64,000 nucleotides of DNA from Escherichia phage vB_EcoM_phAPEC6. The stretch lies in sequence record MK817115.1; one strand, given 5' to 3'. Positions 3,868 to 52,721 of this stretch are shown one piece after another (positions within the stretch are counted from its first letter, which is position 1; each line of letters starts with the position of its first letter). Made by a program: the position numbers and the translations under genes. The notes below the pieces were generated by a model. That model saw only the letters and a list, made by a program, of their open reading frames with translations. It was not told the origin of the DNA and did no database searches.

Positions 3868-3873
3868 CCTCTT

Positions 3874-4491: not shown

Positions 4492-4500
4492 TTTATTTCT

Positions 4501-4532
4501 CCAAAAGAAAAGGAGAGTCACAATGACTCTCC
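4501..4532 (-). terminator. rho-independent terminator (hairpin GGAGAGTCA/TGACTCTCC plus T-run on minus strand)
   Basis: 9-bp perfect stem 4512-4520/4524-4532, A-run 4504-4510 on plus = U-run after stem on minus; downstream of 4540..4980. Confidence 0.5.
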
Positions 4533-4539
4533 ATATATT

Positions 4540-4980: not shown

Positions 4981-5012
4981 AATATCTCTCCTTAGAGTTA
5001 TTCTCTTATTAT

Positions 5013-5441
5013 TTAGTTAATAATAAAGGTAATTTCAGGATTCATTTCAGAAACTGCATTGCGTTTACTTCTATCCCATAGTATTCTGTTATTATACAAA
5101 GAAGAATCACATACTACAAGTAAGCAATTTCTTAATCTACTTACAGTACTTTGATTATTTAAATCAGTTTCTGAAATAAAAAATACATTTTCAGGAACTA
5201 CTAAAGGAATAGATTTATCAAAAAACAAAACTACAATAGGTCTTGTTGTATGAACTGATTTAACGAAATCCAAAATACTATTATAAAAATTAGTTTCTTT
5301 AGTAATTACTGACGGATCTTTAATTCTTTTCAAATATTGCTGTGGTAATTGATGTTCGTCTTTTATCTGAAACTCAAAATATTCTTTGAATAACATTTGT
5401 GTTAATTCGGATTTATCGGATATTTTCGTTGTGTTACTCAT
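5013..5441 (-). CDS. hypothetical protein
   Basis: 142 aa ORF. Confidence 0.45.
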   Translation of the reverse strand: MSNTTKISDKSELTQMLFKEYFEFQIKDEHQLPQQYLKRIKDPSVITKETNFYNSILDFVKSVHTTRPIVVLFFDKSIPLVVPENVFFISETDLNNQSTVSRLRNCLLVVCDSSLYNNRILWDRSKRNAVSEMNPEITFIIN

Positions 5442-5526
5442 TCACTTCGTTCTCTCGTAACTCAAGAAGTCACTGCGTTTACTTCGTAAACTAGTTCCTT
5501 CTGAAAATGATAATGTACTTTAAAAA

Positions 5527-6096
5527 CTTGACGGGATTTGTTGAGGACTATTACATCCCCCCGCAGGGGAATGAAGGTAATAAAAAAGAGACAATTAAGT
5601 CTCTCTTGACGATGATGGCATCGGATATTATCGAATTGCGAATTTCTCAAATTTTGGACGGATCTTTCTTGTACCAAAATTTAGAGAGCGAAAGCGGGTT
5701 GCTCGGTTTCTCTCTATCGCAGTCATATGCAACGGTCGCTGGTCTTTTCATCAACAGCACTCAGTACTAACTCTATTCGATCAAAGTAGTACTTGTTCTC
5801 AAATTTTGGACGCAACTTTCTTGTAAAAATTGCGTCCGCTATCCTTGAACTCCCTTAGCAAATCTGGTAAGGTGCGAACCTTATACATCTATCTAGGAAC
5901 TCTCTGTATGCTTATCGGAGTTCTTTATACAGCCGTGTCGCCGTGATTCGTGGTCTTACATCGTGTTTGTTTGAATGCCAGTACTCTAACAGGTTTCTTC
6001 TGCTGTTCGCTACAACGGTAAAGCTCATCTATCCTTTACATTTTCAAGAGAAGTAGGTTCTCAGTGTCCATTTTTCAATGTCCGTTGTCATTTTCT
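5527..6096. ncRNA. candidate large structured non-coding element, copy A (paralog of 61208..61740)
   Basis: No conserved ORF; shares blocks with copy B (CATCCCCCCGCAGGGGA, GAAAGCGGGTTGCTC, GTTTCTCTCTATCGC, GCAACGGTCG, TGGTAAGGTGCGA, GGAGTTCTTTATACAGCCG, CTGCTGTTCG); hairpins with conserved stems and divergent loops; strand unresolved. Confidence 0.35.
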
Positions 6097-6103
6097 ATAT
6101 ACA

Positions 6104-6114
6104 TTATATCATTG
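6104..6114 (-). promoter_or_regulatory. extended -10 promoter-like motif TGATATAAT (minus strand), preceded by ATGGGACAT box
   Basis: Plus ATTATATCATT = minus AATGATATAAT; same 11-mer at 61748-61758 and TGATATAAT at 31238-31247. Confidence 0.3.
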
Positions 6115-6131
6115 GAACATATAATGTCCCA

Positions 6132-6530
6132 TTACATGTATACTTTTTTAAAATCCTTAGAACAACGATCAAAAATTGTGTTTATGAATTCAACATCTTC
6201 GATAATATTCGAATCGTTAGCAACATTTTCATTTCTTGTCGTGTTCCTATATGTGTGTTCAGGATGATTGTATACCACCTTGACTACATTATTTAGGTCT
6301 ATAAAATTTGACGTTTTTTGCGTATATGAAGCCTGAAGCTTGATGAGTTTACCATCATTCTCAAGATTGGTTTTATGAATTAGTTCTTCAATACCAGTTA
6401 AATGGCTATAGCTATCTTTTTCTTTTACAAAAGTAATAGTAACAAGAACTGCTTTCTCATCTCCCATATCGGAAATGTTTTTTACAGCACTGATAATTTC
6501 TAAGTTTGAAAAATCTAATTCTTTAAGCAT
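6132..6530 (-). CDS. hypothetical protein
   Basis: 132 aa ORF. Confidence 0.45.
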   Translation of the reverse strand: MLKELDFSNLEIISAVKNISDMGDEKAVLVTITFVKEKDSYSHLTGIEELIHKTNLENDGKLIKLQASYTQKTSNFIDLNNVVKVVYNHPEHTYRNTTRNENVANDSNIIEDVEFINTIFDRCSKDFKKVYM

Positions 6531-6531
6531 T

Positions 6532-6888
6532 TTACAAATATTTCCACAAAGTTCGATAAGTGATAATTTCTTCTCTGGTTACAGAAACTTCATTGCACTT
6601 AACACCATCAGTTTCATTACTGAATGGTTGTACTGGTCTATCTTCTGTTAAACCTCGTTCATAAGTACAATGATAAAACTTATTTGTACTCATGTCAAGA
6701 AATACGAGATCAAATTCTTCAGTCCATCTTCTGTGCCCTTTGCTTTCATTGCAGATGATTTTATATTTTACATCTGGTTTAAAAGTTTCAGTACTGTCAT
6801 CCCATGCACCATAGTCAGTATATTCATCATTTTCATCTAACTCTGCTAGATGCCACATTAATTGTGGTAAAAAGATTTTAGATTTCAT
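6532..6888 (-). CDS. hypothetical protein
   Basis: 118 aa ORF. Confidence 0.45.
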   Translation of the reverse strand: MKSKIFLPQLMWHLAELDENDEYTDYGAWDDSTETFKPDVKYKIICNESKGHRRWTEEFDLVFLDMSTNKFYHCTYERGLTEDRPVQPFSNETDGVKCNEVSVTREEIITYRTLWKYL

Positions 6889-6898
6889 TTATTTTCTC

Positions 6899-6929
6899 CA
6901 AAAAAAAGGACTTGAATACTCAAGTCCTT
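6899..6929 (-). terminator. rho-independent terminator
   Basis: Stem GGACTTGA/TCAAGTCC with loop ATAC, A-run on plus (U-run on minus) at 6901-6907; downstream of 6941..7597. Confidence 0.5.
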
Positions 6930-6940
6930 ATAATATCATA

Positions 6941-7597
6941 TCAATCATGTTTATTCAATTTCTTCTGTTCTTTTTTCAAAGCTTTCATATGACGACCAAA
7001 CTCTCGAACATGCCATAGATGATCAGTTTCCCATAATTCTTGACGTAACCTACGTTCTTCTAGTAGTTTCGACTTGTCAATGTTATTTTTCTTTTTTTGT
7101 ACATTAAAGAAATTATTCATATGTTCTTGGAGAAGATTACGACCTTTAACTTTCTCAAGAAACTCATCAACTGTTTCAGTTTTATTCGAACGTAGTTGAT
7201 TACATCTGGAGCACATAGTATTAAAGTTTGACTCTAAATCAGGTCCACCCTTAGATGCCAGATGATTATGGTCAACTGTCATTAAAACTTCATAAAGACC
7301 ACATACAGCATATACATTTAAATGTGGTTTACCATATACTGGATCAGAACATAATGAACGTTCAATGCGTACTTCAGTAGCTTCAATCCCACATGCCACG
7401 CATTTTGGATTCTTAACAAAAGTAAGAACTTTTTGTGGGAAATATCGAAAAGTAATACCATTTAAAGTGTAGCGTTTCATCTTAGTACTTCGTTGATTTA
7501 ATTCTTCAAGAAGTGATAATTTTGTCGTATAGTAAACATGATATTTGTTCATTTTATTCCTTGATATTGATTTTAATATCTTTACCTTGTAAATCAC
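6941..7597 (-). CDS. HNH-family endonuclease (free-standing, homing-endonuclease-like)
   Basis: 218 aa; Cys pair CVACG then DHNHLASKGGPDLESNFNTMCSRCN matching the HNH motif; bracketed by terminators. Confidence 0.55.
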   Translation of the reverse strand: MIYKVKILKSISRNKMNKYHVYYTTKLSLLEELNQRSTKMKRYTLNGITFRYFPQKVLTFVKNPKCVACGIEATEVRIERSLCSDPVYGKPHLNVYAVCGLYEVLMTVDHNHLASKGGPDLESNFNTMCSRCNQLRSNKTETVDEFLEKVKGRNLLQEHMNNFFNVQKKKNNIDKSKLLEERRLRQELWETDHLWHVREFGRHMKALKKEQKKLNKHD

Positions 7598-7862
7598 GAA
7601 TAGTTTTAATCAATGCGTCGTGTTTTAAAGCACATTCATTGTAGACTGCATCCCAACGAGTAAGTACTTTAAGAATTTCTGCACCATCATAACCTTTAAA
7701 ACCATTTTTGTCAATCATAATTTTTTGTGGTAGAGGTGTATCATCATCACATCTTTCTAACAGAATTTCTTGTTTAATTGGTGCGGGGGATTGTAGTTTT
7801 ACTTGCTCGGCACACCCACTTATAATTAAAAAAGAAATCATTGGAACTAATAATTTTTTCAT
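7554..7862 (-). CDS. outer-membrane spanin subunit (o-spanin lipoprotein)
   Basis: 102 aa; signal peptide with lipobox LIISGC; overlaps the upstream i-spanin-like gene, as in T4 pseT.3/pseT.2. Confidence 0.5.
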   Translation of the reverse strand: MKKLLVPMISFLIISGCAEQVKLQSPAPIKQEILLERCDDDTPLPQKIMIDKNGFKGYDGAEILKVLTRWDAVYNECALKHDALIKTIRDLQGKDIKINIKE

Positions 7863-8233
7863 TTGAATTTATTCCTCGCTGCTTGAGAATTTTGTTTTAG
7901 TTCATTCAGTACTTTTACACCATCTTCATCTAAACATACATTCTTATAAACTTCACGTTCTACAATAAAAGGAACCTTTGTTTCAATAACTTTAGCATTA
8001 TCTTCCATGATTTTTTTAGTTTCAAGGTAATTTTTTGCATTTTCTTGTTGCATTTTATCCAAGGCGGTATCAACTTTTTTAGCTATTTGTTGCTCTATGC
8101 TTTGTTGATATCCACTGTAATAAGTATTAGCTTCCCAACCAGCATAAGCTGAACCGCCAATTAATAATACAAAAGAAATTGGTTTCCAAAATGGAATAAG
8201 AATTTTTGAAACAATTATTTCTAACATACTCAT
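7859..8233 (-). CDS. inner-membrane spanin subunit (i-spanin)
   Basis: 124 aa; N-terminal TM helix then charged coiled-coil-like region; immediately upstream of and overlapping the lipoprotein gene. Confidence 0.5.
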   Translation of the reverse strand: MSMLEIIVSKILIPFWKPISFVLLIGGSAYAGWEANTYYSGYQQSIEQQIAKKVDTALDKMQQENAKNYLETKKIMEDNAKVIETKVPFIVEREVYKNVCLDEDGVKVLNELKQNSQAARNKFK

Positions 8234-8286
8234 AATAATATCTCCTATAGTTGATGATATTATTTAGAGTATACAATTGTATAGTT

Positions 8287-8706
8287 TTACAACATTTTTT
8301 GAATATGTTCTACTAGTTCATACAGCTTAGTTTCATTATTCTCGAACTTTTCATCAACTTCAACATTGAATTTTTCTTCTAGTTCCATTACCATTTCAAT
8401 CCAATCAAGCCAATCAAAATGGAATTTTTCTTCGACTTCCAATTTAGTAAGATTGAAGTTCGCTGATACATCATTCTCTGATGTATCACAATAACGAGTA
8501 GTGATGAATTTGACAATTTCTTTTTCAACATCGTTTAATTCACGAGTTTGATATTCGGGCTGAAGATACCACCACTCTCCCTTATTAATAGATTCCAATT
8601 CTTGTTTGATTTCATGCATTACTTTATAACGGTCAGTACTTTTATGAATAGAATTGACTTCTTGGTTCAATACATGTAGTGCATTTTTAATACGTTCATT
8701 TAACAT
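8287..8706 (-). CDS. acyl-carrier-protein-like protein lacking the phosphopantetheine serine
   Basis: C-terminus FDWLDWIEMVMELEEKFNVEVDEKFEN aligns with ACP helix II ([26 protein letters not shown]) but Ser is replaced by Trp. Confidence 0.4.
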   Translation of the reverse strand: MLNERIKNALHVLNQEVNSIHKSTDRYKVMHEIKQELESINKGEWWYLQPEYQTRELNDVEKEIVKFITTRYCDTSENDVSANFNLTKLEVEEKFHFDWLDWIEMVMELEEKFNVEVDEKFENNETKLYELVEHIQKML

Positions 8707-8781: not shown

Positions 8782-11571
8782 TTATAAATCACGGAAACGA
8801 TTTGGTGTGTTTAAGCGGTACATTGAGTATAATCCCAATCCACGCATAATCTCACCTGCCCAGAAACCAAAAAACATACCATTATCAGTACCTTCTCTAA
8901 CTGCTGGACTCCATGAACCATTCATTGGTGAACCTGGATTTACAATAACATAATTCTTTTGAAGTTCGAGAACTAAGTTATCAGCGAGTGTTGTTAGACC
9001 TTCTATTTTACATCCAGCCAATCCAGCAGCACAAGCCCCAGCTAACCACAACCCACACATATGACCTGTAAAGTCCCAATCTGGACCTTCAACTGTGCCA
9101 TCTTTATTGAAGATTGTTGGTGAACGACCATCATTATCTTTTTGAAATTGAATTAAAAAGTGAATCCAATTCTCACAAAATTCAACAAGATCTGCTGGTG
9201 GTTCAATTCCTCTCTCTGCGAGTTCTTGCCATGCTCTGGCAGCCCCAAAGAACGCACGTGGTTCATACCCACTCCATGCTTGATCACCCCAATGTAGCAT
9301 AGTAAATGTATCTGGTTCACCATATTTTAAGTTATCCCAGCGGTTCCAAACATATGCTTGTGCACACGGACCAACAGTACCGAATTGTTGAGTAAACCAT
9401 GTTTGGGAATCTTTCATAAAGCTTAACATGTTTCCTAAGCGTGTGTTATCTACTGGCTGGTCTTTAAAACAATATATCACAGGATATTGATAACCTGGAT
9501 ACGGTAAACCACGCCATCCTGAATACTGGTTCGCATACGGGTCAGTGATGTTAGAAAATGGTATTGTTCCTGGTGTGTAATGCAATGAGTTTAACAAATA
9601 ATCCTTGATTACACAATCCCCTAACTGTGCAGTATATGGTGATTCACCTGCAATTGTTATTGAAAATGTCATAGTATAGTCATCACCGTCAGCATCCGTG
9701 TATAATTCTGGAATGTCATTAATACAATACCAATCAATTATTGCAGCAACACCATCTACTGGGGTTGTATCAGGTAAAATAGTAATATCTTCTAGTTCAC
9801 TATAAACTGGTGCATCTGGTCTTGGGTCAGAACTTGGATGATTTGGCTGATACCCAGATAAACGTAATGTATCGGAACTTAGTGTGATTGTAGTCCATTC
9901 CCCGTGTGTTGCAGGAATCATCCACCACCATCTCCAACCATTATCATCTACAATTCTTATATTGTAATCATCTTCATATGAACGATAGGTAAAAGATTTA
10001 ACTTCAGACTTATTTGTTGCTAATAGCCAAAATCCAATAACAGCACCATCATCTTCACCACAAACTAACTGATTAATGGTATCGCGGCGTGTAACTAATA
10101 TATCAGTACTATATATCATTTCGGACGTTGCTGCACCATAAGGAACAACAATTCTATTATCAGCAATTATATAAGGGGAACCATCTGCTTTCTTTTCTCT
10201 AACAAATGCACTTAAAGGTGTTAATGAATGTGTGATATTTTGGTCTTTACTTTCCGGTAAGCCACAACGATAACGAACAACATCATGGTCATTTTTTGTT
10301 TTTGACAATTCCAGTACTGGTTTAAATGATAACGGCTTACCATCATCACATACACCACCATAGTCTACAAGTAATTTAGAATCAGCATTGACCCTGAACC
10401 AAATAGCTTGTTGTTCCATAGTACTTTGTGCACTTTGGTCTTGCCTGATAGTAATATATCCTAGAGAATTTCTACCAAACTTAGCAATAGCATCACTAGG
10501 ATAAAAATATTCATAGGAAATACCATCAGTGAATGGTGTGGTTACAATTGTACTTTGTCTGAAAAATTTATCTCTGGAGTCAATATCACCATAAGCATAA
10601 CACGTTAGTAGTGAACATTTCCAACCCAAATAATGTTTTCTTTCTTTTGTTATTTTATATAACAAATAAGAAGCATCACTAAACCATAATTCTGCATCTG
10701 ATGCGTTATCAGCAAATTCCAAATCAATTGGAACATGAAGAGGGCGGTTGTGTTGCATTTCATTTCGTTGAATTATCACACCACCATATTCTACTGGTTG
10801 ACGATTTGCAAAATTTAATTTATATACACCATTAATTGTTGTATTCTTTAATTGAACAGTTCCTTTTTCAGATTCGTCAAAACCTTCTGCTAAAATATTA
10901 CCATCCCAGTCGATTTTTCTACCCATGAAATCGATAATCCAGTCAACATCATATTGTTCACCTGGTGTATCCCAATCAACACTACCATCTGGTAATAATG
11001 CTTTTACTGAAGCATTTATTTGGTTCCATGCTAACGCACCTTTGAATGCAAATGTCACTTTATCCAAGAACTGACCATAATATGGTGCACCATGTGGTAT
11101 TTTACATTGACCATTAGTAAATGTAAATTCTACTCCCTTGAAACCACCATGTGTGGGCCAGCCATCATCAGCTAAAGGCCAGTTAGCCAATATAGGTTCT
11201 TTGGCATTAACTATCCAGTTACATTGTAGTGGTGTAGGTGGATCTGGTAATTCACGTCCAGCATAAAAGTACTGATGATATGCGTCCCAATACCACTTTG
11301 CCTTATCTAAAAACATTGGATCATTTGTTGCCAGATACGCATAAATGTATCCTAAAATTAATAGACTTTGACCTTCTGTTGTCCCGTCACCGTTTGGTTG
11401 ACCTTCCATTGCAGAATAGTTAATAAAATGACGGTTGTTCGCCAAAACACCCTGATTATTCACCACATAATGTTGTACTGTTGGGTCTATTGTATCACCA
11501 GTATTTCTTTCAATAAATTTGTGATGCCCATAAAGAAGTTGTACAATATTATCAATATTATTGTTTAACAT
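8782..11571 (-). CDS. large virion-associated protein of unknown function
   Basis: 929 aa, Trp/Tyr/Gly-rich, lies in a cluster with tail-fiber genes; no catalytic motif recognised by eye. Confidence 0.5.
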   Translation of the reverse strand: MLNNNIDNIVQLLYGHHKFIERNTGDTIDPTVQHYVVNNQGVLANNRHFINYSAMEGQPNGDGTTEGQSLLILGYIYAYLATNDPMFLDKAKWYWDAYHQYFYAGRELPDPPTPLQCNWIVNAKEPILANWPLADDGWPTHGGFKGVEFTFTNGQCKIPHGAPYYGQFLDKVTFAFKGALAWNQINASVKALLPDGSVDWDTPGEQYDVDWIIDFMGRKIDWDGNILAEGFDESEKGTVQLKNTTINGVYKLNFANRQPVEYGGVIIQRNEMQHNRPLHVPIDLEFADNASDAELWFSDASYLLYKITKERKHYLGWKCSLLTCYAYGDIDSRDKFFRQSTIVTTPFTDGISYEYFYPSDAIAKFGRNSLGYITIRQDQSAQSTMEQQAIWFRVNADSKLLVDYGGVCDDGKPLSFKPVLELSKTKNDHDVVRYRCGLPESKDQNITHSLTPLSAFVREKKADGSPYIIADNRIVVPYGAATSEMIYSTDILVTRRDTINQLVCGEDDGAVIGFWLLATNKSEVKSFTYRSYEDDYNIRIVDDNGWRWWWMIPATHGEWTTITLSSDTLRLSGYQPNHPSSDPRPDAPVYSELEDITILPDTTPVDGVAAIIDWYCINDIPELYTDADGDDYTMTFSITIAGESPYTAQLGDCVIKDYLLNSLHYTPGTIPFSNITDPYANQYSGWRGLPYPGYQYPVIYCFKDQPVDNTRLGNMLSFMKDSQTWFTQQFGTVGPCAQAYVWNRWDNLKYGEPDTFTMLHWGDQAWSGYEPRAFFGAARAWQELAERGIEPPADLVEFCENWIHFLIQFQKDNDGRSPTIFNKDGTVEGPDWDFTGHMCGLWLAGACAAGLAGCKIEGLTTLADNLVLELQKNYVIVNPGSPMNGSWSPAVREGTDNGMFFGFWAGEIMRGLGLYSMYRLNTPNRFRDL

Positions 11572-11572
11572 A

Positions 11573-12109
11573 TCATACTCCTGCTCTAATTAATGCACCG
11601 TACCATGTAACTCCTTTATCATATGTTTCTAATGAAATAATATCTTTTTCACCAATTTCATAAGAAAGAACAACTGGTCTGTTATATGACCATTTAACAT
11701 TAGAACCCCAATTAACTAGGTTTGAACCTGTTTGTTGTGTTAATAGGATGGTAATTGAATAAACTTCAGTAGGAGCCGTACCAATCGAAATAGTAGTATT
11801 TCTATCAGATAAATTAATATTAAAAACAGAATTGCCCGACAGTGGATTAATTAAAATATTATTAGAACTTAATACATTATATAACTTATTACTTGCACTA
11901 TCATATAATGTTACCCATTCTGTTTCATGATTCTCGTTAGTAGCTTTAGCTTTTATCTTAACATTATTTTCAGAATCAGTCATTCCAGTCCATCCAGATA
12001 TAATAAAAGAACTGTTTTTATTAGTTCCGAATGATGCAATCACAGAATCACTAAGAGAACTATCTTCACCATCAATAGATCCGAGTACTGACAATGTTAA
12101 AACCATCAT
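11573..12109 (-). CDS. hypothetical Ser/Asn/Thr-rich protein
   Basis: 178 aa; overlaps 12072..12263 in another frame, possibly one gene with a frameshift. Confidence 0.4.
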   Translation of the reverse strand: MMVLTLSVLGSIDGEDSSLSDSVIASFGTNKNSSFIISGWTGMTDSENNVKIKAKATNENHETEWVTLYDSASNKLYNVLSSNNILINPLSGNSVFNINLSDRNTTISIGTAPTEVYSITILLTQQTGSNLVNWGSNVKWSYNRPVVLSYEIGEKDIISLETYDKGVTWYGALIRAGV

Positions 12110-12263
12110 TTTTAATGTCTACACCAGTAGCACCAGAAAAATTATTTTGAAATTTAATAACTCCGGTAGTGTGGATATCTGTGAAAATTTGTTGTGCCAT
12201 ACTTAATCCTTGTGTTAATTTATATTGAGTATTTATTGAGTGTAATGGCATTTTTAGTACCAT
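12072..12263 (-). CDS. hypothetical small protein (possibly N-terminal part of 11573..12109 via frameshift)
   Basis: 63 aa ORF overlapping the next ORF by 38 nt; similar composition. Confidence 0.3.
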   Translation of the reverse strand: MVLKMPLHSINTQYKLTQGLSMAQQIFTDIHTTGVIKFQNNFSGATGVDIKNDGFNIVSTRIY

Positions 12264-12277
12264 TACACTTGTATATG

Positions 12278-13510
12278 TTACTTATACCATTGCATTTCTC
12301 TAATATCAATGATAATTTTTGATGCTAACTTGATGTTTGGTTTTTTAGGAAGTACTGATTTCTTATATAGAACATCACGAATGTATTGTACTTTATCATC
12401 GAAATATTCTAATACTTCTTCATACTTCCATTTACCATTACGAATATCCATCAACATTTGTGCATCTGGTCGTTTAACTTGAATAATTCCACTTTGTAAC
12501 GCTTCTTCTGCACTATTCAAAAGTCGGATTGTGTGCATAGCATGTTTACAATCGTATCCGTGTTGTGATTCTAAAATAGCACGTTTGGCATTACGATTTT
12601 CTTTCCATTTATGATAACTTTTCCTATTCTCACTATTTTCCTGATATTCTTTTTCGTTAAATTTGACAATTAGTTCTGGTTTGGTTTTCAACTCTTCAGT
12701 ACTACGTTCTTTTGAAAAATAACGCAATGAACCATCATGGTTAATAGTGCTTTCATTAGGATTCTTAACAATCGCAAAAATGTTTTCTCCGTAATGAATT
12801 AGTTCATAACCATTATTAAAATTCAATAAATTGAAATCACGATCAAGAATTTTTTCAGTAGTGTAGTTATGCACTAATCTTACGAAATGATATTGCTTTA
12901 ATGGATTTTTCGAAACTAACTGCAATGATGTATCACGCATATATTTTTCAAAATCAATCTTTTTAGCATTAAATGGATGTAAGTTGGATGTATCTAAACG
13001 TTCAACAAGATACTGTGGGAATGAATCATACATCCACGCAAGAACCTCATCGACAGGGTGTTCTTCTAAAATCTCATTTAATCGTTTTTCAGCAATACGC
13101 TCTTTATCCATCCAACCGTGATGATTTGTCATACGCTTAATCTGATTATATGCATATCCAGTGTATGAAAATGCAATCTTGGAACTAAGAAGTTTTTGGT
13201 TAAATGAACGAAGATAGTCATAAATTTCAGTACTTTCCACAATGTGTTCAGGTTCAACCCAAAGTGATTCAAGAATATTAGGGTTAGCTTCAGTGTATAA
13301 TTTTAAATACTGATTCAACTCATAGAATTTAGTATCTTCTTCGCTTTTGTCAGCTACCTCGTTGACCTTATAGAAGGGTGTAAGAATAAATTCTTTATTA
13401 GCAAGAAAAATACCACGATAATCAGTATCACTTTCCGGTGTACTGGTTCCGTAGGCTTGTGACCCAGCCAAGTGTTTCACTATTGTTTGTTCAATATATT
13501 GGTTATTCAT
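12278..13510 (-). CDS. Pol-beta-superfamily nucleotidyltransferase-domain protein
   Basis: 410 aa; N-terminal GSQAYGTSTPESDTDYRG fits the minimal NTase motif GS-x10-DxD. Confidence 0.5.
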   Translation of the reverse strand: MNNQYIEQTIVKHLAGSQAYGTSTPESDTDYRGIFLANKEFILTPFYKVNEVADKSEEDTKFYELNQYLKLYTEANPNILESLWVEPEHIVESTEIYDYLRSFNQKLLSSKIAFSYTGYAYNQIKRMTNHHGWMDKERIAEKRLNEILEEHPVDEVLAWMYDSFPQYLVERLDTSNLHPFNAKKIDFEKYMRDTSLQLVSKNPLKQYHFVRLVHNYTTEKILDRDFNLLNFNNGYELIHYGENIFAIVKNPNESTINHDGSLRYFSKERSTEELKTKPELIVKFNEKEYQENSENRKSYHKWKENRNAKRAILESQHGYDCKHAMHTIRLLNSAEEALQSGIIQVKRPDAQMLMDIRNGKWKYEEVLEYFDDKVQYIRDVLYKKSVLPKKPNIKLASKIIIDIREMQWYK

Positions 13511-13908
13511 AGATAAATTGTTAACTCCTTTAAGAAACCATTATAATAACGATTAAAGTCATGTTCTAATGTTTTATAATCATCAAAACTAAAACCTAAA
13601 TTGATAATTGTATCTTCTTGAAAGAAAGTTTCTTCATTCATACATTCAATAGGTTCGTAATTAATTCCACCTTTGAAAACTTTTGTAAAAAACATTCCAT
13701 CATTATTAATTTCAACATACATAAAATTATTTTCTGGGTCACGAGGACAGACGATATTCAGTGAACTATTTCCACTTGTATTGTACTCATAAGAAATTAT
13801 ATCAAAAGAATCAATACCATAACACTTAGATTTTTCTTTATCGCCAAATACTTTTCTATCTGTACTCATATTGCGTATAGTGCTATAGATATCATCAACT
13901 GTAGTCAT
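13507..13908 (-). CDS. hypothetical protein
   Basis: 133 aa ORF. Confidence 0.4.
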   Translation of the reverse strand: MTTVDDIYSTIRNMSTDRKVFGDKEKSKCYGIDSFDIISYEYNTSGNSSLNIVCPRDPENNFMYVEINNDGMFFTKVFKGGINYEPIECMNEETFFQEDTIINLGFSFDDYKTLEHDFNRYYNGFLKELTIYL

Positions 13909-13910
13909 AG

Positions 13911-14420
13911 TTAACCACCATACTTTGACTTGTATGTTTCAAGTGATAAAGATATACGATTTTGCTTTTTAATTCTTTCATCAATATCCTTTGAATTCTT
14001 CACACTTCGGTATACGTCAGCTAATAAATTATAATCTTCTTTATTTGAGCTATGCTGTGTCCAACCTATGTCTGTTTTAATACGAACATTTGCTTTATTT
14101 GACGAGTAAAAGAAACTGAAACCATTTGACCCATCAAAAATATCAAAAGTATCTACCCAATCACCATAAGGAAAACTCATCGGGACTGACTCGTGGTCGA
14201 TTGTGATATCCGATAAATTTTTTGAACAGTACTTCGCAAAGTGATAAACAATTGGATCACATTTAGATAATTCATATTTGTATTCAATGATAGTTTTTCT
14301 ATTAGCATCATTGATAGCATATTCTTTCATCAATGGGCTTTTTTTGATGATAAGAGTCCACAGAAACGATTCTAATCCGGTTTCATCAACTTTTTGTTTC
14401 TTTTTGAAAAATGAAATCAT
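13911..14420 (-). CDS. hypothetical protein, member of tandem paralog triplet
   Basis: 169 aa; shares DANRKTIIEYKYELSK-type motif with 14417..14938 and 14945..15511. Confidence 0.45.
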   Translation of the reverse strand: MISFFKKKQKVDETGLESFLWTLIIKKSPLMKEYAINDANRKTIIEYKYELSKCDPIVYHFAKYCSKNLSDITIDHESVPMSFPYGDWVDTFDIFDGSNGFSFFYSSNKANVRIKTDIGWTQHSSNKEDYNLLADVYRSVKNSKDIDERIKKQNRISLSLETYKSKYGG

Positions 14421-14938
14421 TTATATAAACCCTTAATTTTCTGTCTATTATGTATATCATTTTGCTGGATTTTCAATTTAGTAAGGTTGTTTCTTACACC
14501 TTCAACTCCACGCATTATTTGTAACATAATTAGTGATTCGTCATATGTTAGTACATTGCTATTATTATCGATATATACTTTCACTCCACTTTCAAGATAA
14601 TCATTTTCTTTGGAGTTAAAGTTTCTAATAGCAAACTTAACGCCATTTGATGTATCACTGAAAACATATCGTTCCGCACCGTAGAATGTTTTTCCACGAA
14701 ATAAACCGCCGTCTTCCCACTTCCAACGACTAGATTCATAATCATTAACGTAATCAATGATTAAAGAAAGTAAAGGGTGTTTGCTCAATTTATATTTTGC
14801 ATCTAACAGGATACGTCTATCATTATCTGTGGTGATAATATCCTTTAGTGAGTAGCTTTTAGATATAATTTTAAAGATAATTTCATGCCAAATTAAAGTA
14901 CTGTTTTGTTTTCCAACTGATCCAAAAAACATATCCAT
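14417..14938 (-). CDS. hypothetical protein, member of tandem paralog triplet
   Basis: 173 aa; motif DNDRRILLDAKYKLSK. Confidence 0.45.
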   Translation of the reverse strand: MDMFFGSVGKQNSTLIWHEIIFKIISKSYSLKDIITTDNDRRILLDAKYKLSKHPLLSLIIDYVNDYESSRWKWEDGGLFRGKTFYGAERYVFSDTSNGVKFAIRNFNSKENDYLESGVKVYIDNNSNVLTYDESLIMLQIMRGVEGVRNNLTKLKIQQNDIHNRQKIKGLYK

Positions 14939-14944
14939 TCCTCA

Positions 14945-15511
14945 TTAGTATAAATCAGTAATGTCTTTGTATGCATTAATCTGTTTTTGTTGTAATGAAA
15001 GTTCATTGAGTTTAGTTACCATTTTATCTACACCAACACGTGTATAGAAAATAATAAATGAATCTAAATTGCCTAGAGTAATTCTTGAACTGTAATTTGA
15101 AAGTTTTCTTGCATAAACATAAATTTCTTCTTCACTTGGTAAACGTTTCTCAATCGGCCAGCTTTCCACACCATTCGGCTCATAATCGATTTCAAATTCA
15201 ACTCCCATCACTGTGTCTTGAATGAGATCCGTATATGAACCACCGTAAAAATACTCTCTTGGTTTGGCTCTCCAACGAGGACTAAATGGGTCAGATGCGT
15301 ATTCTTTTACAAATTTGTAAAAGGACATTTTACTGAGCATATACTTCATCTCAATTAGTGCTTTGCGGTCATCATCAGTTTTAAACTCTGCTTTGAGCGA
15401 TGGACTTTTACACAGTAACTTAACTAAATTGATGTACATCTTTAATGTACGTTGTTCTTTCATTTCTTTGATTTTGTGACGTTTTGGTGGCGGTAATAAA
15501 GATTTGACCAT
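14945..15511 (-). CDS. hypothetical protein, member of tandem paralog triplet
   Basis: 188 aa; motif DDDRKALIEMKYMLSK. Confidence 0.45.
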   Translation of the reverse strand: MVKSLLPPPKRHKIKEMKEQRTLKMYINLVKLLCKSPSLKAEFKTDDDRKALIEMKYMLSKMSFYKFVKEYASDPFSPRWRAKPREYFYGGSYTDLIQDTVMGVEFEIDYEPNGVESWPIEKRLPSEEEIYVYARKLSNYSSRITLGNLDSFIIFYTRVGVDKMVTKLNELSLQQKQINAYKDITDLY

Positions 15512-15544
15512 AATTTCCTCCTATTTTTATTCAATTATACACAT

Positions 15545-15573
15545 AAAAGAAAAGCCCGTCAATAGACGAGCTT
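15545..15573 (-). terminator. rho-independent terminator ending the tail-fiber operon
   Basis: Stem AGCCCGTC/GACGAGCT (one mismatch), A-run on plus 15547-15552; just downstream of 15579..18308. Confidence 0.45.
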
Positions 15574-15578
15574 TAAAT

Positions 15579-18308
15579 TTATTTCCAACGTGTACCTGGA
15601 CCTGATGGTACACCAGTACTGGCAGGTATCGCTGAACCACGTTTCGTTGTACTTGGACGATATGTCAAAAAACGAGTTACTTTTTCTGTATCAATTGAAG
15701 TTATTCCTGAAGTTCCAGTAACTATCTTACCAATGTAAGTGCTAGTTAAAGATTCATCAATTGTTTCAGTACTAATAACATATGACGCTTTCTTAGTATT
15801 CCTGTTCATTTGTATATACAAATAGAACGTAGTATTAGCTGGGTTACTTTTTACAGTACTTAAATCAACACTTTGTATAGGTAGTCTGTCGAAAATTCCA
15901 CCTAAAAACACCGGAACTTCACGTGTAAAGTACACTGAGAATCCTTGTGCAACGTCTTGTGATACTACCACAATCTTTTCTTTAACGCTACCATTTCCAC
16001 TAATTAAACCATCCATTTCAGCAGATGTTGTACCAAAAACGCTGAATACAGATTTGGTTTGATAGTCAGAATCTTGAAAATTGTAATATCCAAAACCAAC
16101 ACCAGGAATAACACCATGTTGATATGCTGCACCAAGTTGGATGTAACTAGATGATAAAAAACGATTTGATGTTATGACACCATCTACTGTTTTAGCTATC
16201 ATCATCTTAAATTGTGCATTACCTGGTTGTGAAAATTGATGAACAGCATCAACACCAATGTAACCAAATCCTGAATATTTTGCAACTGTTAGACCAGTAC
16301 AACGTTTCATATATGCTTCAGTAATAATTCCTGTAACAGAACTAAGTGTCTCATATCTAGTACTCACCAATGTAGCTGAAGTTATGTTAGTTCCAGATAA
16401 TACAACATCAACTTCGGCATAGATTGCATAACCTTGGTTATTGTTAAGATTATATGCTGAAACTACTGCGATGGATTTAGAAAAAGTATTATCAGGTACA
16501 TAATATAATACAATTTGTCCAGATAGTGTGCCAACAATGCCAGAGTTTCCTATATTAGCAAAAATATCTTGTTTTAATGATTCTAATACCGTTGGTTCTA
16601 TTGTATATGTTTCATCAAATTCTAAAGTATCTGGGTTTAATAATCCACCACTTGTTTTATATACACCTTCAATGAATGATGTTCCATAGCATCTAACACT
16701 ACCATCGGTATCAACAAGAGAAATCATAGCAGTGTATGTAAAATCATCGCCTATTTGTTTACGATTAGATTGTGGTGCAAAACCATTTAATGTAGTATTA
16801 TTTTGAACTGAGTTATATTGATATGTTGGTTGTGAACCTATTTCAGAAAAAACAGTATTATTATAATTATATGTTACATCATCATACGTACCAGAACATG
16901 CTAATAATATTTTTCTATTATCGATGAAACGTACACCTAAAAGGTTTGCACCAACAGCACTACCAAAAACTGGTAAAACGTTTGCATTTATAACGTTACT
17001 TGCGGTTCTAGTACTGGCAACCCATGAATCAAACGGTGTACCACTAACCTTATATCGTTGTAGACCATAAAATTCAGTTGAACTCCATCTAAATTTAGAT
17101 GCAAATACCAAACCATCTTTAGTTTGACATAAACCACCTGCGTTTCCTAATACACCAGCAGCAGTTGTCCCTGTGAAGTTGACCATATTAATTTCAAATG
17201 GGTTAGAAACTTGAAATCCATTATTATATGAAACAGTTGCAGGTGCACGAGCACTACCATCTAGTGACATAGATTTTGAGTTTATATTATAAACAAAACT
17301 TATTCCAGTACCATAAACTGTTGAAATATACAAAGGTGTAACCATTCGATGTGTTGGATATAAAGTTACACGTATTTTTGATAAATCAGTACTAACGTTG
17401 GCTTGAATGTTAAAGTCTGTATAGTCTGAAAATTCTACACGTGATACTGGTGATGTAACTTCGAATAATGAATCCGAGCTAGTACCAACACTATATAATT
17501 TATCGAACACTCTTATGTTATTAGATGCAGAATAACTTGTGTTTCGAACAGTTTGACCTGATAACCCAGTAACTTTTGTTAATGATGCCATTGAGCTTGC
17601 TTTCACATCACTTAGCTCTACTGTATAAATTGAAAGTGCTAATCCTAAATTAGAAACACTTTTATCTTTACACCAAATATAAACCTTTGTCCCAACAATA
17701 TGTGTATATATTGGCATATCATTACCAAAAGAAGTACTTGGCACTTTAGCATGAATATGTGATATTTCGTTAAATGTGCCATTGGTTATAGTAAAAATAT
17801 AATTATCTTCAGTACTTAAACATCCAAGCATCTCATAACCATTAGAGCCAATAAAATACTTAATATTTTCAGTACTACTCATAATTGAAGGTTTATACAT
17901 TGAATTGGTTGAAATAACACTTTCTTGTGAAATCATAGTTATATTTCGGAGTTCTCGTATAAATGAATAATAAAAACCTTTAGTACTACCATTGGTTCCG
18001 CTACGCAGAACAACGGCGGTTCCATCATCTTCAATAATTGTTGGCTGAACTACTTGGTCACTTGACATAGGTGTAGCACCTTCATACGACCCACTTACGT
18101 TTAATGGTAAGTAATCCATTTCTCCTACACGTGATATAGGCAACATATCTAAAATACTTTGAACTTCTGAACGCTTATATATTGGATATTGAACAATTCC
18201 AGTATTGGCATTCGGTGAGGTTCCATTAAAAGTACGCATAGCGTACCTTTGTCCAATTGCCAAGTTCCCAAGGATCTCGGCACTTCCTATAATTCGTTTT
18301 GATGACAT
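15579..18308 (-). CDS. tail fiber protein
   Basis: About 909 aa from ATG 18308 (RBS AAGGAAAAG); N-terminal LRSGTNGS and C-terminal VVSQDVAQGF...SRF.TYRPS module shared with 18924..21620 and 18325..18912; track ORF start 18398 is probably too long. Confidence 0.55.
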   Translation of the reverse strand: MSSKRIIGSAEILGNLAIGQRYAMRTFNGTSPNANTGIVQYPIYKRSEVQSILDMLPISRVGEMDYLPLNVSGSYEGATPMSSDQVVQPTIIEDDGTAVVLRSGTNGSTKGFYYSFIRELRNITMISQESVISTNSMYKPSIMSSTENIKYFIGSNGYEMLGCLSTEDNYIFTITNGTFNEISHIHAKVPSTSFGNDMPIYTHIVGTKVYIWCKDKSVSNLGLALSIYTVELSDVKASSMASLTKVTGLSGQTVRNTSYSASNNIRVFDKLYSVGTSSDSLFEVTSPVSRVEFSDYTDFNIQANVSTDLSKIRVTLYPTHRMVTPLYISTVYGTGISFVYNINSKSMSLDGSARAPATVSYNNGFQVSNPFEINMVNFTGTTAAGVLGNAGGLCQTKDGLVFASKFRWSSTEFYGLQRYKVSGTPFDSWVASTRTASNVINANVLPVFGSAVGANLLGVRFIDNRKILLACSGTYDDVTYNYNNTVFSEIGSQPTYQYNSVQNNTTLNGFAPQSNRKQIGDDFTYTAMISLVDTDGSVRCYGTSFIEGVYKTSGGLLNPDTLEFDETYTIEPTVLESLKQDIFANIGNSGIVGTLSGQIVLYYVPDNTFSKSIAVVSAYNLNNNQGYAIYAEVDVVLSGTNITSATLVSTRYETLSSVTGIITEAYMKRCTGLTVAKYSGFGYIGVDAVHQFSQPGNAQFKMMIAKTVDGVITSNRFLSSSYIQLGAAYQHGVIPGVGFGYYNFQDSDYQTKSVFSVFGTTSAEMDGLISGNGSVKEKIVVVSQDVAQGFSVYFTREVPVFLGGIFDRLPIQSVDLSTVKSNPANTTFYLYIQMNRNTKKASYVISTETIDESLTSTYIGKIVTGTSGITSIDTEKVTRFLTYRPSTTKRGSAIPASTGVPSGPGTRWK

Positions 18309-18324
18309 CTTTCTTTTCCTTAAT

Positions 18325-18912
18325 TTACCAACCAATTGTACCAGTTTCTGATGGTTTTCCAGTACTGACTGGGAATGAAGAACCTTTTTGTGTAACACTA
18401 GGTCTATATGTACTAAATCTGGATACTTTATTAATGTTTATATTTGTAATACCACTTGTACCAACGGTCAGTGTTCCAATAAACATTATAATTTCAGATT
18501 CTTGTATTTGTGTTGGTGATATTTTATAAATTGGTTCACCGAGAACTAACGTTGCATATACGTATTGTGTTTGTGTTCCAGATGAAACAGTTGAAGCAAA
18601 AATAGAAACTGCTGGAAATTTATAAAGATAACCACCAATAAATGATGGTATCTGTCTATTAAATGTAAGACTATAGCCTGATGAAGTAATATTTAGACTA
18701 GCGTCATCATACAATTCTCCGTATTGTGTAAGTGGTAATCCATTGACAATAAAGTTAACTTCATCTTTGGTAATAGAGGGGAATGTACATTCCCCATTTG
18801 AATTTGTTGGGTAATAAGTCATATTATTACCTAATACACCAAGACCAGTACTTTTACCCTGAACTGTAACTTGTTGCATTGCCTTAAGGTCTGCTCTTAT
18901 TTTATATGCCAT
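18325..18912 (-). CDS. small tail fiber-related protein carrying the shared C-terminal module
   Basis: 195 aa; C-terminus SRFSTYRPSVTQKGSSFPVSTGKPSETGTIGW matches the C-termini of both large fiber proteins. Confidence 0.5.
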   Translation of the reverse strand: MAYKIRADLKAMQQVTVQGKSTGLGVLGNNMTYYPTNSNGECTFPSITKDEVNFIVNGLPLTQYGELYDDASLNITSSGYSLTFNRQIPSFIGGYLYKFPAVSIFASTVSSGTQTQYVYATLVLGEPIYKISPTQIQESEIIMFIGTLTVGTSGITNININKVSRFSTYRPSVTQKGSSFPVSTGKPSETGTIGW

Positions 18913-49597: not shown

Positions 49598-49842
49598 TAT
49601 AATAAACCTCTCACATAAAACATTGATGAAAATAGATAATCATCAGTACTTGTGTTTAGATGTTTAGAAAAGCTATATTTTTTATGTTTTTTTTCGTATA
49701 AAGACAATCTATAGAACATTTCTATATTTTCTAAGTATTCTTTTTGTAATAACATCTGTGTTTTTACATTCATTATAATATTCCTTAAAAGAAAAAGGGA
49801 CCAACATATGATCCCTTTTGTATTAGAAATTTCCTTCTGCAA
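49597..49842 (-). CDS. hypothetical protein
   Basis: 81 aa ORF overlapping the pnk 3' region; uncertain. Confidence 0.3.
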   Translation of the reverse strand: MQKEISNTKGIICWSLFLLRNIIMNVKTQMLLQKEYLENIEMFYRLSLYEKKHKKYSFSKHLNTSTDDYLFSSMFYVRGLL

Positions 49843-50755
49843 CTTGAAAAACTTTCAAGCCAAGTAGCTTACGCCACATGAATACGACTTGTGTTCGGTC
49901 ATCATATACCTTTTTAACATCGTAATGATCAACCACATTTTTCATGTACAGGTCGAATTTTACAACATCATCAGGACGTTTATCATCGATATCTCGCATA
50001 AACAATGCATCGTAAGGAACACCCCAATTCTTAAGCCACTGTTCGGTATCCGCACGACACCCTTCAGTACGCCCACTCATGACGATAATCTTGCGTTTAT
50101 GAAAAACTGCTTCAGCGATAATAGACAAAATAACTTCTTCATCAGGTGTATCCTGAAGAACAGTACTTTCATCGTAAGGATTACGACCCCATTTATGAGC
50201 AAGAGTTCCATCGATATCAACGATGATAGCAGCTTCGCGTGAATTACCATAGTAACCAATGTGTAATGCTTTACTATAATAGTACGTATCTGCCATTTTG
50301 TCAATGATATCATCTGGTACTGAACGCTCACGCTGGAGGTTATATTTCTTACAAAGTTTTACGAACTCTTTAATCTTAAAGAATTCATGAACATCTGCAC
50401 CACGGTCTTCATTAGGTACAAAATCATCATAGAAGTTCTTTTCTTTGTAATCATAACCATTATCTGTAGCCCATACTTTCCAGAGATTACGGAAATGTGG
50501 TTTAAGGTTTGTATCGGATACTATGATGTTCCAACCATTCTCTGCTGCTGAATTTGCTGCACTGAACTGTAAATTATCTACGTACTGCTCATTAGCATCG
50601 TTGAATTTGTAAGCATCATGTGACCCAGCCATAGATTCACGAATATCATCACGGTTGATGTTGATAGTCTTGGATTTGGCTTTTTTAATCTCTTGCACTG
50701 CCCATGTAGTTTTACCACACCCAGGCAATCCAACTGTTAGTGTGATAGTTGGCAT
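49823..50755 (-). CDS. pseT: polynucleotide 5'-kinase / 3'-phosphatase (T4 PseT-like)
   Basis: 310 aa; P-loop GLPGCGKTT; HAD phosphatase motif DIDGTL; C-terminus DDRTQVVFMWRKLLGLKVFQVAEGNF matches T4 Pnk C-terminus. Confidence 0.85.
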   Translation of the reverse strand: MPTITLTVGLPGCGKTTWAVQEIKKAKSKTININRDDIRESMAGSHDAYKFNDANEQYVDNLQFSAANSAAENGWNIIVSDTNLKPHFRNLWKVWATDNGYDYKEKNFYDDFVPNEDRGADVHEFFKIKEFVKLCKKYNLQRERSVPDDIIDKMADTYYYSKALHIGYYGNSREAAIIVDIDGTLAHKWGRNPYDESTVLQDTPDEEVILSIIAEAVFHKRKIIVMSGRTEGCRADTEQWLKNWGVPYDALFMRDIDDKRPDDVVKFDLYMKNVVDHYDVKKVYDDRTQVVFMWRKLLGLKVFQVAEGNF

Positions 50756-51578: not shown

Positions 51579-52721
51579 CTAAAAATCCTTTAGTACAATT
51601 TTCATGTATTTTATAAGAGTCTCTTTGTAATCAACTTTCTTATTGTTATACATTGCAAAGGCCAAGCCCTGACGATTCAGTTCATTAGTTAAACACTCCT
51701 GAACCTTCATTGCGAATTCCTTTCGCTCCAAGTGCTTGTGTTCCTTGACGAAGCTTTCTACTTCATCTTGTAATGCATTATAGCACGAAAATACCAATTG
51801 TTCCATTCTTAATATCTTTTGCATAGCATATTCATCAGTACTGAACAATTGTTTTAAATCATCACTTGAACCATTTAATACTGCTTCATATAAATGAGAA
51901 TCAATAATAATACTATCTTTTGTAAGATGTAATGAACTGTACCAGTCAGTCTTTATTTTACACATTGTCCCATTATTTAGGATGCACACAAAACCCTCAA
52001 TATCAAGCATTTTATGAACTTCCTCCACGCTTTCACGGAAGGTATTTCGTACCGGAAAAGTGTGATGAATATCTTTTCCAGTCATATTAGTACTGTACTG
52101 TGCAAGACATGGAAACTTATCACGTAGTGCTTTACCACATAGCAACTCACCACTCACACGATGACGAACGTTCAGTACAAACAGTTGTTCTACCTGATAT
52201 GGTAATACAATTCGGTACTCTGGGCTTGTATACTCCATATTAACTGTGTAACCTAAACGTTCCGCTTCGTCGATGTACTGATACAAATTCTGGTTCTCGT
52301 TAATAAGTCGAGTACTGTTAATCGCATGGTCAGAATACAATGCAGTATGTGATTTACAACGAATCTCACCATCATTATCACGGTAAGTACTGATAATCGA
52401 ACCATCCAACTTAGGCATCACTACCGCAATGTCATCGCATGTGGTGTTAGCAGGGAACATTGTAGCAGGATTCTCGTAAGCATTGAAGAACTTTTTCATT
52501 GTACGTGCTGCACAACGTATCATTTCACCTTCTTCATCAATTTCCCACATAGAGCCACGGGTTTCCAACGCATTTGGTTGCATGAAATCAGTGTATGATG
52601 CTAGACGATAACTGAATACACGATACGTGCCACCAGCAGGACTTTTATGATCCACATAAAAGAATGCATCGTTTGTATTACATAAGTGCATTAAATCTTC
52701 ATATATTTGCAAAAGGGTCAT
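51579..52721 (-). CDS. rnlA: RNA ligase 1 (T4 Rnl1/gp63-like)
   Basis: 380 aa; adenylation motif KLDGS; YRVFSYRLASY, KIKTDWYSSLH and GSSDDLKQLFSTDEY align with T4 Rnl1 segments. Confidence 0.85.
   Translation of the reverse strand: MTLLQIYEDLMHLCNTNDAFFYVDHKSPAGGTYRVFSYRLASYTDFMQPNALETRGSMWEIDEEGEMIRCAARTMKKFFNAYENPATMFPANTTCDDIAVVMPKLDGSIISTYRDNDGEIRCKSHTALYSDHAINSTRLINENQNLYQYIDEAERLGYTVNMEYTSPEYRIVLPYQVEQLFVLNVRHRVSGELLCGKALRDKFPCLAQYSTNMTGKDIHHTFPVRNTFRESVEEVHKMLDIEGFVCILNNGTMCKIKTDWYSSLHLTKDSIIIDSHLYEAVLNGSSDDLKQLFSTDEYAMQKILRMEQLVFSCYNALQDEVESFVKEHKHLERKEFAMKVQECLTNELNRQGLAFAMYNNKKVDYKETLIKYMKIVLKDF

Follow-up and report, generated by a model that had tools for sequence, protein, structure and literature searches.

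The gene at positions 12278..13510 (minus strand) of the phage DNA analyzed here almost certainly encodes a nucleotidyltransferase (NTase) of the RlaP family, with the fold typical of such enzymes. We think it probable that the protein is a template-independent enzyme filling gaps at RNA 3' ends during phage tRNA repair, by analogy with assayed RlaPs that are bacterial, belong to another sequence cluster, lack the insertion described below, and were characterized in vitro in a preprint. The analyzed stretch, called the window hereafter, comprises 64,000 nucleotides of Escherichia phage vB_EcoM_phAPEC6 (MK817115.1). The gene is already annotated and belongs to a named family; it is ordinary apart from an insert of around 150 residues.

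Assignment to the RlaP family

The ORF scan returned a reading frame of 410 codons plus stop, with an ATG start, on the minus strand of the window, and the same frame on the plus strand across 12278-13510 has many stops and no ORF. Over the ORF region, the DNA is 99.7-99.9% identical to that of two jumbo coliphages of the genus Asteriusvirus, 121Q and BF17. In 121Q, the ORF is gp506 (YP_009102093.1), labelled 'nucleotidyltransferase', and many related records use this label as well.

The sole Pfam match of the protein is PF10127, RlaP ('RNA repair pathway DNA polymerase beta family'), with 58.8 bits (E=8.4e-16) against a gathering score of 23 bits. Hence, the specificity that a preliminary description of this DNA had left blank can be narrowed to that of a named family. 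The match covers only residues 13-131, which correspond to profile positions 24-144 of 249. PHROG 388 ('nucleotidyltransferase') matches the full length of the protein (residues 4-409, E=2.5e-76). Matches of this strength are well outside what chance would give. The head domain of class II CCA-adding enzymes and poly(A) polymerases (PolyA_pol, PF01743) is absent, RlaP being all that Pfam gives. Searches of NCBIfam with the 410-aa protein produced zero matches, as did the PADLOC defence models at E<=0.1. Neither the protein nor a 40-sequence profile found anything at E<=10 in the PDB sequences, which included 9dbh and 9dbj and not the structure of PfRlaP.

The family is large: we found 6866 representatives at 50% identity (E<=1e-3), and 962 phage records have a match. 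There were 1591 matches in a database clustered at 90%, and each listed one with a precomputed Pfam domain has PF10127. The same listing includes one truncated homolog without any precomputed Pfam domain.

Active site and predicted fold

The NTase domain is N-terminal (residues 1-132, 13115..13510, minus strand), as delimited by the Pfam match, the invariant columns of the homolog alignment, and the structural model. The GS...DxD signature with which the protein was said to begin is indeed present, but the quoted string, GSQAYGTSTPESDTDYRG, spans residues 16-33 and is not at the extreme start. Across 40 aligned homologs, the most distant at 38% identity, the residues G16-S17 (13460-13465), D28-x-D30 (13421-13429), the third carboxylate D59 (13334-13336), and N76-P77-N78 are all invariant. 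Some homologs contain inteins, which interrupt an invariant YD|[CT]KHAMH motif; their location inside the motif suggests that it is functionally critical.

The predicted model has a pLDDT of 91.5 and places strands at residues 9-15, 30-35, 51-54, 60-64, and 90-93. The G-S pair lies at the first helix, D-x-D at the start of strand 30-35, and D59 at the start of strand 60-64. The fold of the NTase domain matches those of KNTase, HalB, MNT, and LinB. The intact acidic triad and the concordant predicted fold both agree with the earlier assignment to the Pol-beta superfamily of nucleotidyltransferases, for which these were the proposed checks.

Domain architecture and insertion

The preliminary description could not place the C-terminal part of the protein. 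Relatives of 230-290 aa span the Pfam RlaP profile nearly end to end (P0246 covers positions 19-248 of 249) and align to the 410-aa protein in two blocks, at residues ~1-135 and ~295-410. We compared the profile of the query family with that of 16 minimal proteins, all PF10127, using hhalign. At 100% probability (E=1e-108), the resulting alignment has 259 columns, covers template positions 7-265 of 267, and leaves one gap only, opposite query residues ~143-295. As the short relatives and the minimal-protein profile align to both halves with a single gap, the protein is a complete RlaP, in which the NTase domain and the helical domain typical of the family are separated by ~150 inserted residues. 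The last ~115 residues can thus be placed, as the helical domain of RlaP behind the insertion.

In the minus-strand gene, this C-terminal domain was modelled at residues 291-410 (12281..12640) and resembles HEPN bundles in structural comparisons. Its invariant residues in the 40-sequence alignment are W302, R306, N307, R310, E314, D320, K322, H326, R329, R347, and D349, some of them within the motif G318-R329, 'GYDCKHAMHTIR' (12524-12559). Some relatives carry a fused RNase T-type 3'-5' exonuclease, which implies remodelling of 3' ends.

The subfamily-specific insertion was modelled at residues 133-290 (12641..13114, minus strand), with true limits at ~135/143 and ~290/295. No solved structural relative was found for it. 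It comprises a helical part (~137-205), present only in the ~410-aa forms of jumbo phages, and a four-stranded beta part (~206-285) that the ~410-aa and ~350-aa forms have in common. In the ~350-aa forms, which occur in Vequintavirinae and in some bacteria, the insertion consists of the beta-rich part alone, and the ~410-aa forms have ~60 helical residues (~137-197) in addition. The longest sequences carrying ~410-aa forms measure 236-362 kb, which is the size of jumbo phages.

Genomic context

The gene is best described as the last of a putative unit of five genes on the minus strand. Just before it lies a gene for a 133-aa protein (13507..13908; ORF scan), assigned to phrog_22376, a group of unknown function. 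The stop of this ORF and the RlaP start share 4 nt (ATGA), and the two genes are therefore probably translationally coupled. The first three genes of the unit (13911..15511) are small paralogs encoding 169, 173, and 188 aa (phrog_7868 and phrog_18641), of which the latter two proteins are 30% identical. None of the three has a Pfam match, and the 133-aa protein has none in Pfam or the PDB.

The likely start of the unit is a terminator hairpin with an embedded promoter (15534..15574, minus strand). The hairpin (15551-15574; dG of -17 kcal/mol, z=-6.8) directly precedes the 188-aa ORF, and a T-run comes after it. The promoter (15534-15562) has its -35 box, TTGACG, inside the hairpin, then a 17-nt spacer and a TATAAT -10 box, with AGGAGG and the ATG (15511) further downstream. 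We infer from this layout that the three paralogs, the 133-aa ORF, and RlaP are expressed from a sigma-70-type promoter, in a unit predicted to be insulated from the upstream gene for a 939-aa protein. At the other end, a 12-bp hairpin (12239..12269, minus strand) is found 9 nt past the RlaP stop; it has no U-run, a dG of -15.1 kcal/mol, and z=-4.9, and is possibly a boundary of the unit or an RNA-stability element.

The same organization is found in a Klebsiella phage, fENko-Kae01, with an NTase of 59% identity. This phage keeps the upstream order of two large paralogs, a 195-aa ORF, the 133-aa ORF, and the NTase, including an identical 4-nt overlap between the last two. It also has a matching terminator/promoter layout (-35 TTGACA, -10 TATAAT), in which the sequence of the stem differs but still pairs. 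The 133-aa protein is confined to 51 records of RaK2-like jumbo phages, and in the annotated ones the match region also reaches into the nucleotidyltransferase gene.

The gene had been described as lying between a tail-fiber operon and a large virion-associated protein, a position deemed unexpected for a metabolic enzyme. This context is only partly borne out. The downstream genes (11573-12109 and 8782-11571) belong to tail or tail-fibre PHROGs, and upstream of RlaP the 939-aa protein is found beyond four small ORFs. The PHROGs of the latter are all of 'unknown function', and the fENko-Kae01 record, in which other virion proteins are marked as found by LC-MS/MS, carries no such note for its homolog. 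There is little to wonder at in the position, since the gene would end a separate five-gene unit with its own terminator and promoter. As fENko-Kae01 keeps the upstream unit but shows no synteny in the downstream tail-fibre genes, the adjacency is incidental. T4 Rnl1 also acts in fibre attachment. Given this precedent and a gene that abuts tail genes, a role in tail-fibre assembly was considered; it was rejected because of the lack of downstream synteny in fENko-Kae01 and because the NTase is not among the virion proteins flagged there by LC-MS/MS. The T4-type late promoter TATAAATA has 2 matches in the window, where ~13 are expected, and none near the gene, which is uninformative on the timing of expression.

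RNA-repair enzymes and co-occurrence

Two other minus-strand genes of the window encode enzymes of RNA repair. One (49823..50755) encodes a 310-aa Pnkp, a polynucleotide 5'-kinase/3'-phosphatase that corresponds to 121Q gp443. It has a P-loop kinase domain and a HAD_PNKP domain (Pfam AAA_33 and HAD_PNKP, E=1.6e-43) and ~34% identity to T4-type pseT. The other (51579..52721) encodes a 380-aa Rnl1-type RNA ligase (Pfam RNA_lig_T4_1 and T4_Rnl1_C) that corresponds to 121Q gp438 and has ~36% identity to T4-type rnlA. The phage thus encodes all three members of the T4 set (Pnkp, Rnl1, and RlaP) within a single 64-kb window. By analogy with T4, Pnkp would be the end-healing partner of RlaP and Rnl1 its sealing partner. 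The ligase is not adjacent to RlaP, Rnl1 being ~38 kb distant. The immediate neighbours of RlaP include no RNA ligase, either RtcB or ATP-dependent, only small unknown ORFs and tail genes. Those neighbouring ORFs that were scanned have no Pfam domains, and no tRNA genes were found within the window.

We also looked at the surroundings of cellular relatives. A tblastn search of the window Rnl1 and Pnkp across 52 cellular loci revealed a nearby Pnkp-like HAD phosphatase in one of them, in Saccharibacteria, and no ligase beside the sampled relatives. The neighbours are heterogeneous and include DNA methylases, glycosyltransferases, and an amidohydrolase. Among ten of them analyzed with Pfam, we found a CCA-type NTase, a calcineurin-like phosphoesterase (at a Patescibacteria locus), and an ATP-grasp protein, the rest being unrelated. 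The HAD phosphatase, the CCA-type NTase (beside a Spirochaetia homolog), and the phosphoesterase speak for a role in RNA repair, as does a tRNA NTase near the homolog of phage CR9. Hence, the insertion-bearing subfamily has no consistent operon with RNA ligases in the 52 cellular loci sampled. Among phages, there are 35 RlaP-matching records from Cronobacter phages, including the Vequintavirinae phage CR9. Co-occurrence of RlaP with ligases may not be universal, since Cronobacter phages are absent from the ten most frequent organism names among the Rnl1 or Pnkp matches.

Proposed function and alternatives

The repair of cleaved tRNA by Pnkp and Rnl1 in T4 is the textbook example of phage counter-defence, and nucleases of the RloC type, which excise a nucleotide, should render it futile. 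As the gap-filling step that this repair lacks, RlaP was proposed first from comparative genomics and then from in vitro work with bacterial enzymes. The name of the family comes from its association with RNA ligases, according to the papers that cite Burroughs and Aravind. It is the commonest end-restoring NTase of jumbo phages, in which its distribution mirrors that of RNA ligases, and it was predicted to replace nucleotides lost to nucleases such as RloC before ligation (Iyer et al. 2021, PMC7824862). T4 NrdC.11 has been named as an RlaP (cluster 5; PMC12776372), and T4 lacking its gene remains viable on laboratory hosts (PMC9825161).

Two Pseudomonas enzymes, PfRlaP and PaRlaP, have been assayed in vitro (Carruthers, Fatma and Huang, bioRxiv preprint, December 2025, PMC12776372). 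Among E. coli macromolecules they label RNA alone, DNA and protein not being substrates. They require a 3'-OH, to which they add 1-2 NMPs from any NTP and also dATP, do not extend DNA, and prefer Mn2+ or Co2+ (Mn2+ for PfRlaP). Gap-filling partly restores the aminoacylation of a repaired tRNA missing one nucleotide, and the 3'-OH product directly suits 5'-phosphate ligases according to the authors (PMC12776372).

By homology to these enzymes, D28, D30, and D59 of the phage protein would hold two divalent metals and G16-S17 would position the NTP, while the RNA would be held in a cleft lined by the positively charged C-terminal domain (K322, H326, R329, R347). The RNA 3'-OH would then attack the alpha-phosphate, resulting in the addition of 1-2 NMPs with little base selectivity. 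In the cell, a host anticodon nuclease (RloC-type) would cut a tRNA and remove a nucleotide, Pnkp would convert the ends into 3'-OH and 5'-P, RlaP would put back the missing nucleotide or nucleotides, and Rnl1, which requires exactly 3'-OH and 5'-P, would seal the break. This putative order of healing, gap-filling, and sealing fits the chemistry and rests on the known T4 pathway and on the preprint. Expression from the sigma-70-type promoter would suggest an early function, and one may speculate that the insertion and the coupled 133-aa protein tune the choice of substrate.

A bolder version of this proposal is that the insertion-bearing PHROG 388 clade is a dedicated counter-defence. The ~150-residue module, perhaps with the 133-aa partner, would recognize anticodon loops damaged by nucleases and direct the re-insertion of the wobble nucleotide before sealing by Rnl1. 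We regard this extension as doubtful. If it were true, it would be a phage answer to 'smart' anticodon nucleases like RloC, thought to beat T4-type repair.

The main alternative to gap-filling in tRNA repair, which we consider unlikely, is that the enzyme modifies RNA 3' ends outside of defence repair. It might mature or proof-read the 3' ends of phage tRNAs with a CCA enzyme, or tail transcripts and thereby alter their stability. The chemistry of the family would be identical, and there is no operon link between RlaP and the ligase. According to its genome paper, the near-identical phage Sharanji carries 7 tRNAs, a CCA enzyme, and a tRNA adenosine deaminase, a set that also fits tRNA repair. 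A full-length homolog in CR9 is ~2 kb from a CCA-adding-type tRNA NTase, and another adjoins such a gene in a Spirochaetia MAG, where the PolyA_pol domain was found. In total RNA, PfRlaP also labels rRNA- and tRNA-sized species; however, its preferred substrate is the 3' end of an anticodon-loop break rather than that of the acceptor side, and the addition of 1-2 nt is poor for tailing (PMC12776372). The jumbo-phage distribution of the family tracks RNA ligases (PMC7824862), and a phage that already owns a dedicated CCA enzyme would have this step of tRNA maturation covered.

Other readings move away from RNA. The enzyme might nucleotidylylate a small molecule or a protein, like the ANT, KNTase, and LinB antibiotic NTases or the MNT-type AMPylases that act on HEPN toxins. 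The best Foldseek matches are ANT(4') kanamycin NTases, MNT antitoxins, LinB, and AadA are also among the matches, and the C-terminal domain is HEPN-like. We nevertheless find this very improbable, because the similarity is one of fold at the level of the superfamily: the top scores are weak (E~0.02, TM~0.2-0.3), and the ANT(4') and KNTase-like minimal NTases, which also join a Pol-beta NTase domain to a helical C-terminal domain, use small-molecule acceptors and have no sequence-level relationship to the phage protein. We give equally little credence to a polymerase like HalB of the Hailong system (PDB 9dbh/9dbj), making protein-primed or free oligodeoxyadenylate and possibly serving as a decoy that holds the HalA channel closed. 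HalB has the HalA channel as its partner and synthesizes long poly-dA on a protein primer, and its similarity to the phage protein is structural only, with no sequence homology detectable at E<=10 in the PDB or E<=0.1 in PADLOC. The least probable reading is the synthesis or modification of a nucleotide second messenger by a CD-NTase or OAS-like enzyme. The preliminary description had suggested that such folds make nucleotide signals or modify RNA or DNA ends; the latter half agrees with the RlaP assignment and the former is unsupported. Membership of the Pol-beta superfamily is compatible with signalling, and a paper on the origins of OAS reportedly mentions RlaP alongside nucleotidyltransferases. 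Yet the PADLOC searches were empty, the CD-NTase structures CdnE and CdnC appear in Foldseek only at E 1.5-4 with TM~0.1, and the neighbourhood has no identified effector or receptor gene. Moreover, the demonstrated acceptor of the family is the RNA 3'-OH (PMC12776372).

Gap-filling in tRNA repair is thus the reading we retain. The gene is a clean candidate for a test, being in a culturable coliphage whose genome also has healing and sealing enzymes of the T4 type. The practical value is modest and consists in correcting annotations, e.g., that of the Sharanji homolog, which the genome paper lists under DNA repair. The analysis also points to the uncharacterized ~150-residue insertion and the conserved 133-aa protein coupled to the enzyme, but not to a new kind of system.

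Comparison with known systems

Within PHROG 388, the NTases of Vequintavirinae (CR9 gp211, Av-05) are full-length homologs with 35-44% identity that have the beta part of the insertion in common with the phage protein. They differ in their length of ~350 aa, in lacking the helical sub-insertion (~60 residues) seen in the jumbo-phage clade, and, for CR9, in their neighbours, which include the CCA-adding-type NTase and a HisRS-like gene.

The Pseudomonas enzymes are without the ~150-residue insertion, and their genes lie inside rtcB-rtcA operons, whereas the phage gene has an Rnl1-type ligase ~38 kb off. In other words, the genome-level trait of RlaPs, an RNA ligase together with end-healing enzymes, is present in the window, and the adjacency to a ligase that gave the family its name is not. 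The phage protein and the Pseudomonas ones share PF10127, an N-terminal Pol-beta NTase domain with three catalytic Asp, a basic C-terminal helical domain, and presumably the addition of 1-2 NMPs onto RNA 3'-OH.

T4 NrdC.11 differs in belonging to another subfamily: it has 336 aa, no NPN motif, a different middle region, and a location in the nrdC/mobD region. Still, the T4-type homolog Ozark gp098 (336 aa) is collinear with our protein, with 27% identity in the N-terminal half (E 2e-12) and 24% in the C-terminal one (E 2e-5). In both cases, a phage RlaP is encoded in a genome that also holds Pnkp (pseT) and Rnl1 (rnlA).

The putative RlaP transcription unit and its neighbors

The gene of RlaP is the last of an inferred transcription unit of five genes, and its start is overlapped by 4 nt by an ORF encoding a protein of 133 aa (window 13507-13908, minus strand, phrog_22376). 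Searches of Pfam and PDB with this protein gave no match. It is restricted to 51 phage records, all of them RaK2-like jumbo phages (Asteriusvirus, RaK2/K64-1, and Munch-like), and in every record where the nucleotidyltransferase is annotated, the region matching the 133-aa protein also touches the nucleotidyltransferase gene. It may be a clade-specific partner of RlaP. The front of the unit is made of three small paralogs in tandem, of 169, 173, and 188 aa (window 13911-15511, minus strand, phrog_7868 and phrog_18641), where no known domains were found; the last two share 30% identity.

Upstream of these genes lies a compact terminator-promoter junction (window 15534-15574, minus strand), in which the -35 hexamer is placed within the loop and the descending arm of an intrinsic-terminator hairpin and is followed 17 nt downstream by TATAAT. 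The junction is kept in the Klebsiella phage fENko-Kae01 (L004:4598-4642), with compensatory changes in the stem. At the other end of the unit, 9 nt past the stop codon of RlaP, there is a perfect 12-bp hairpin (window 12239-12269, minus strand; dG of -15.1 kcal/mol, z=-4.9) that has no U-run. It is followed by the element ATATAAATTA, and then by a small ORF and the tail-fibre genes.

Upstream of the unit, on the same minus strand, we found genes for proteins of 939 aa (window 15579-18398) and 898 aa (window 18924-21620), which are paralogs over their full length (27% identity, PHROG 3573). The 195-aa ORF sited between them (window 18325-18912, minus strand) looks like a miniature version, built from segments of their N and C termini. 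The three proteins are all conserved in fENko-Kae01, and no Pfam domains were found in them. Further away, the window encodes a protein of 323 aa (28124-29095, minus strand), whose C-terminal part is a WGR domain (E=1.1e-10) and whose remainder has no assigned domain, and a 479-aa protein in which an N-terminal PIN domain is fused to PhoH (31275-32714, minus strand, 121Q gp480). The latter is potentially another RNA-processing protein in the same region as RlaP.

Intein-like insertions in long homologs

Seven longer homologs of RlaP (P0121, P0134, P0131, P0094, P0136, P0122, and P0125; 682-763 aa) have an extra segment of several hundred residues, around 330 aa where both junctions could be mapped. 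In the four homologs with a mapped N-terminal junction, the segment starts with a Cys immediately following the invariant Y-D, and in all seven it ends in GN right ahead of [C/T]KHAMH. A LAGLIDADG domain is present in one of the seven. The segment looks like an intein that homed into the best-conserved motif of the C-terminal domain of RlaP, at a site equivalent to D320|C321 of the phage protein (window 12548-12553).

Possible links to RNA metabolism among the homologs

In Cronobacter phage CR9 (Vequintavirinae; L005, locus 2818-8410), the RlaP homolog gp211 is encoded at about 2-3 kb or less from both the tRNA nucleotidyltransferase gp217 and a short gene annotated as histidyl tRNA synthetase (gp208). 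This is a tRNA-related neighborhood. The genome paper of phage Sharanji (PMC11895373) grouped a "putative nucleotidyltransferase" (WNN14733.1), presumably the RlaP homolog annotated at the matching locus, with DNA-repair proteins. Because of the assignment to RlaP, our results suggest that it should be grouped with RNA repair instead.

Three other homologs (P0148, P0164, and P0200; 660-674 aa) consist of RlaP followed by a C-terminal RNase T/DEDD 3'-5' exonuclease domain (Pfam E-values of 1e-17 to 1e-22). The fusion suggests that trimming is coupled with addition at RNA 3' ends. If so, this would agree with the proposal of "add two, remove one", put forward for compatibility with RtcB in the preprint on Pseudomonas RlaPs (Carruthers, Fatma & Huang, PMC12776372).
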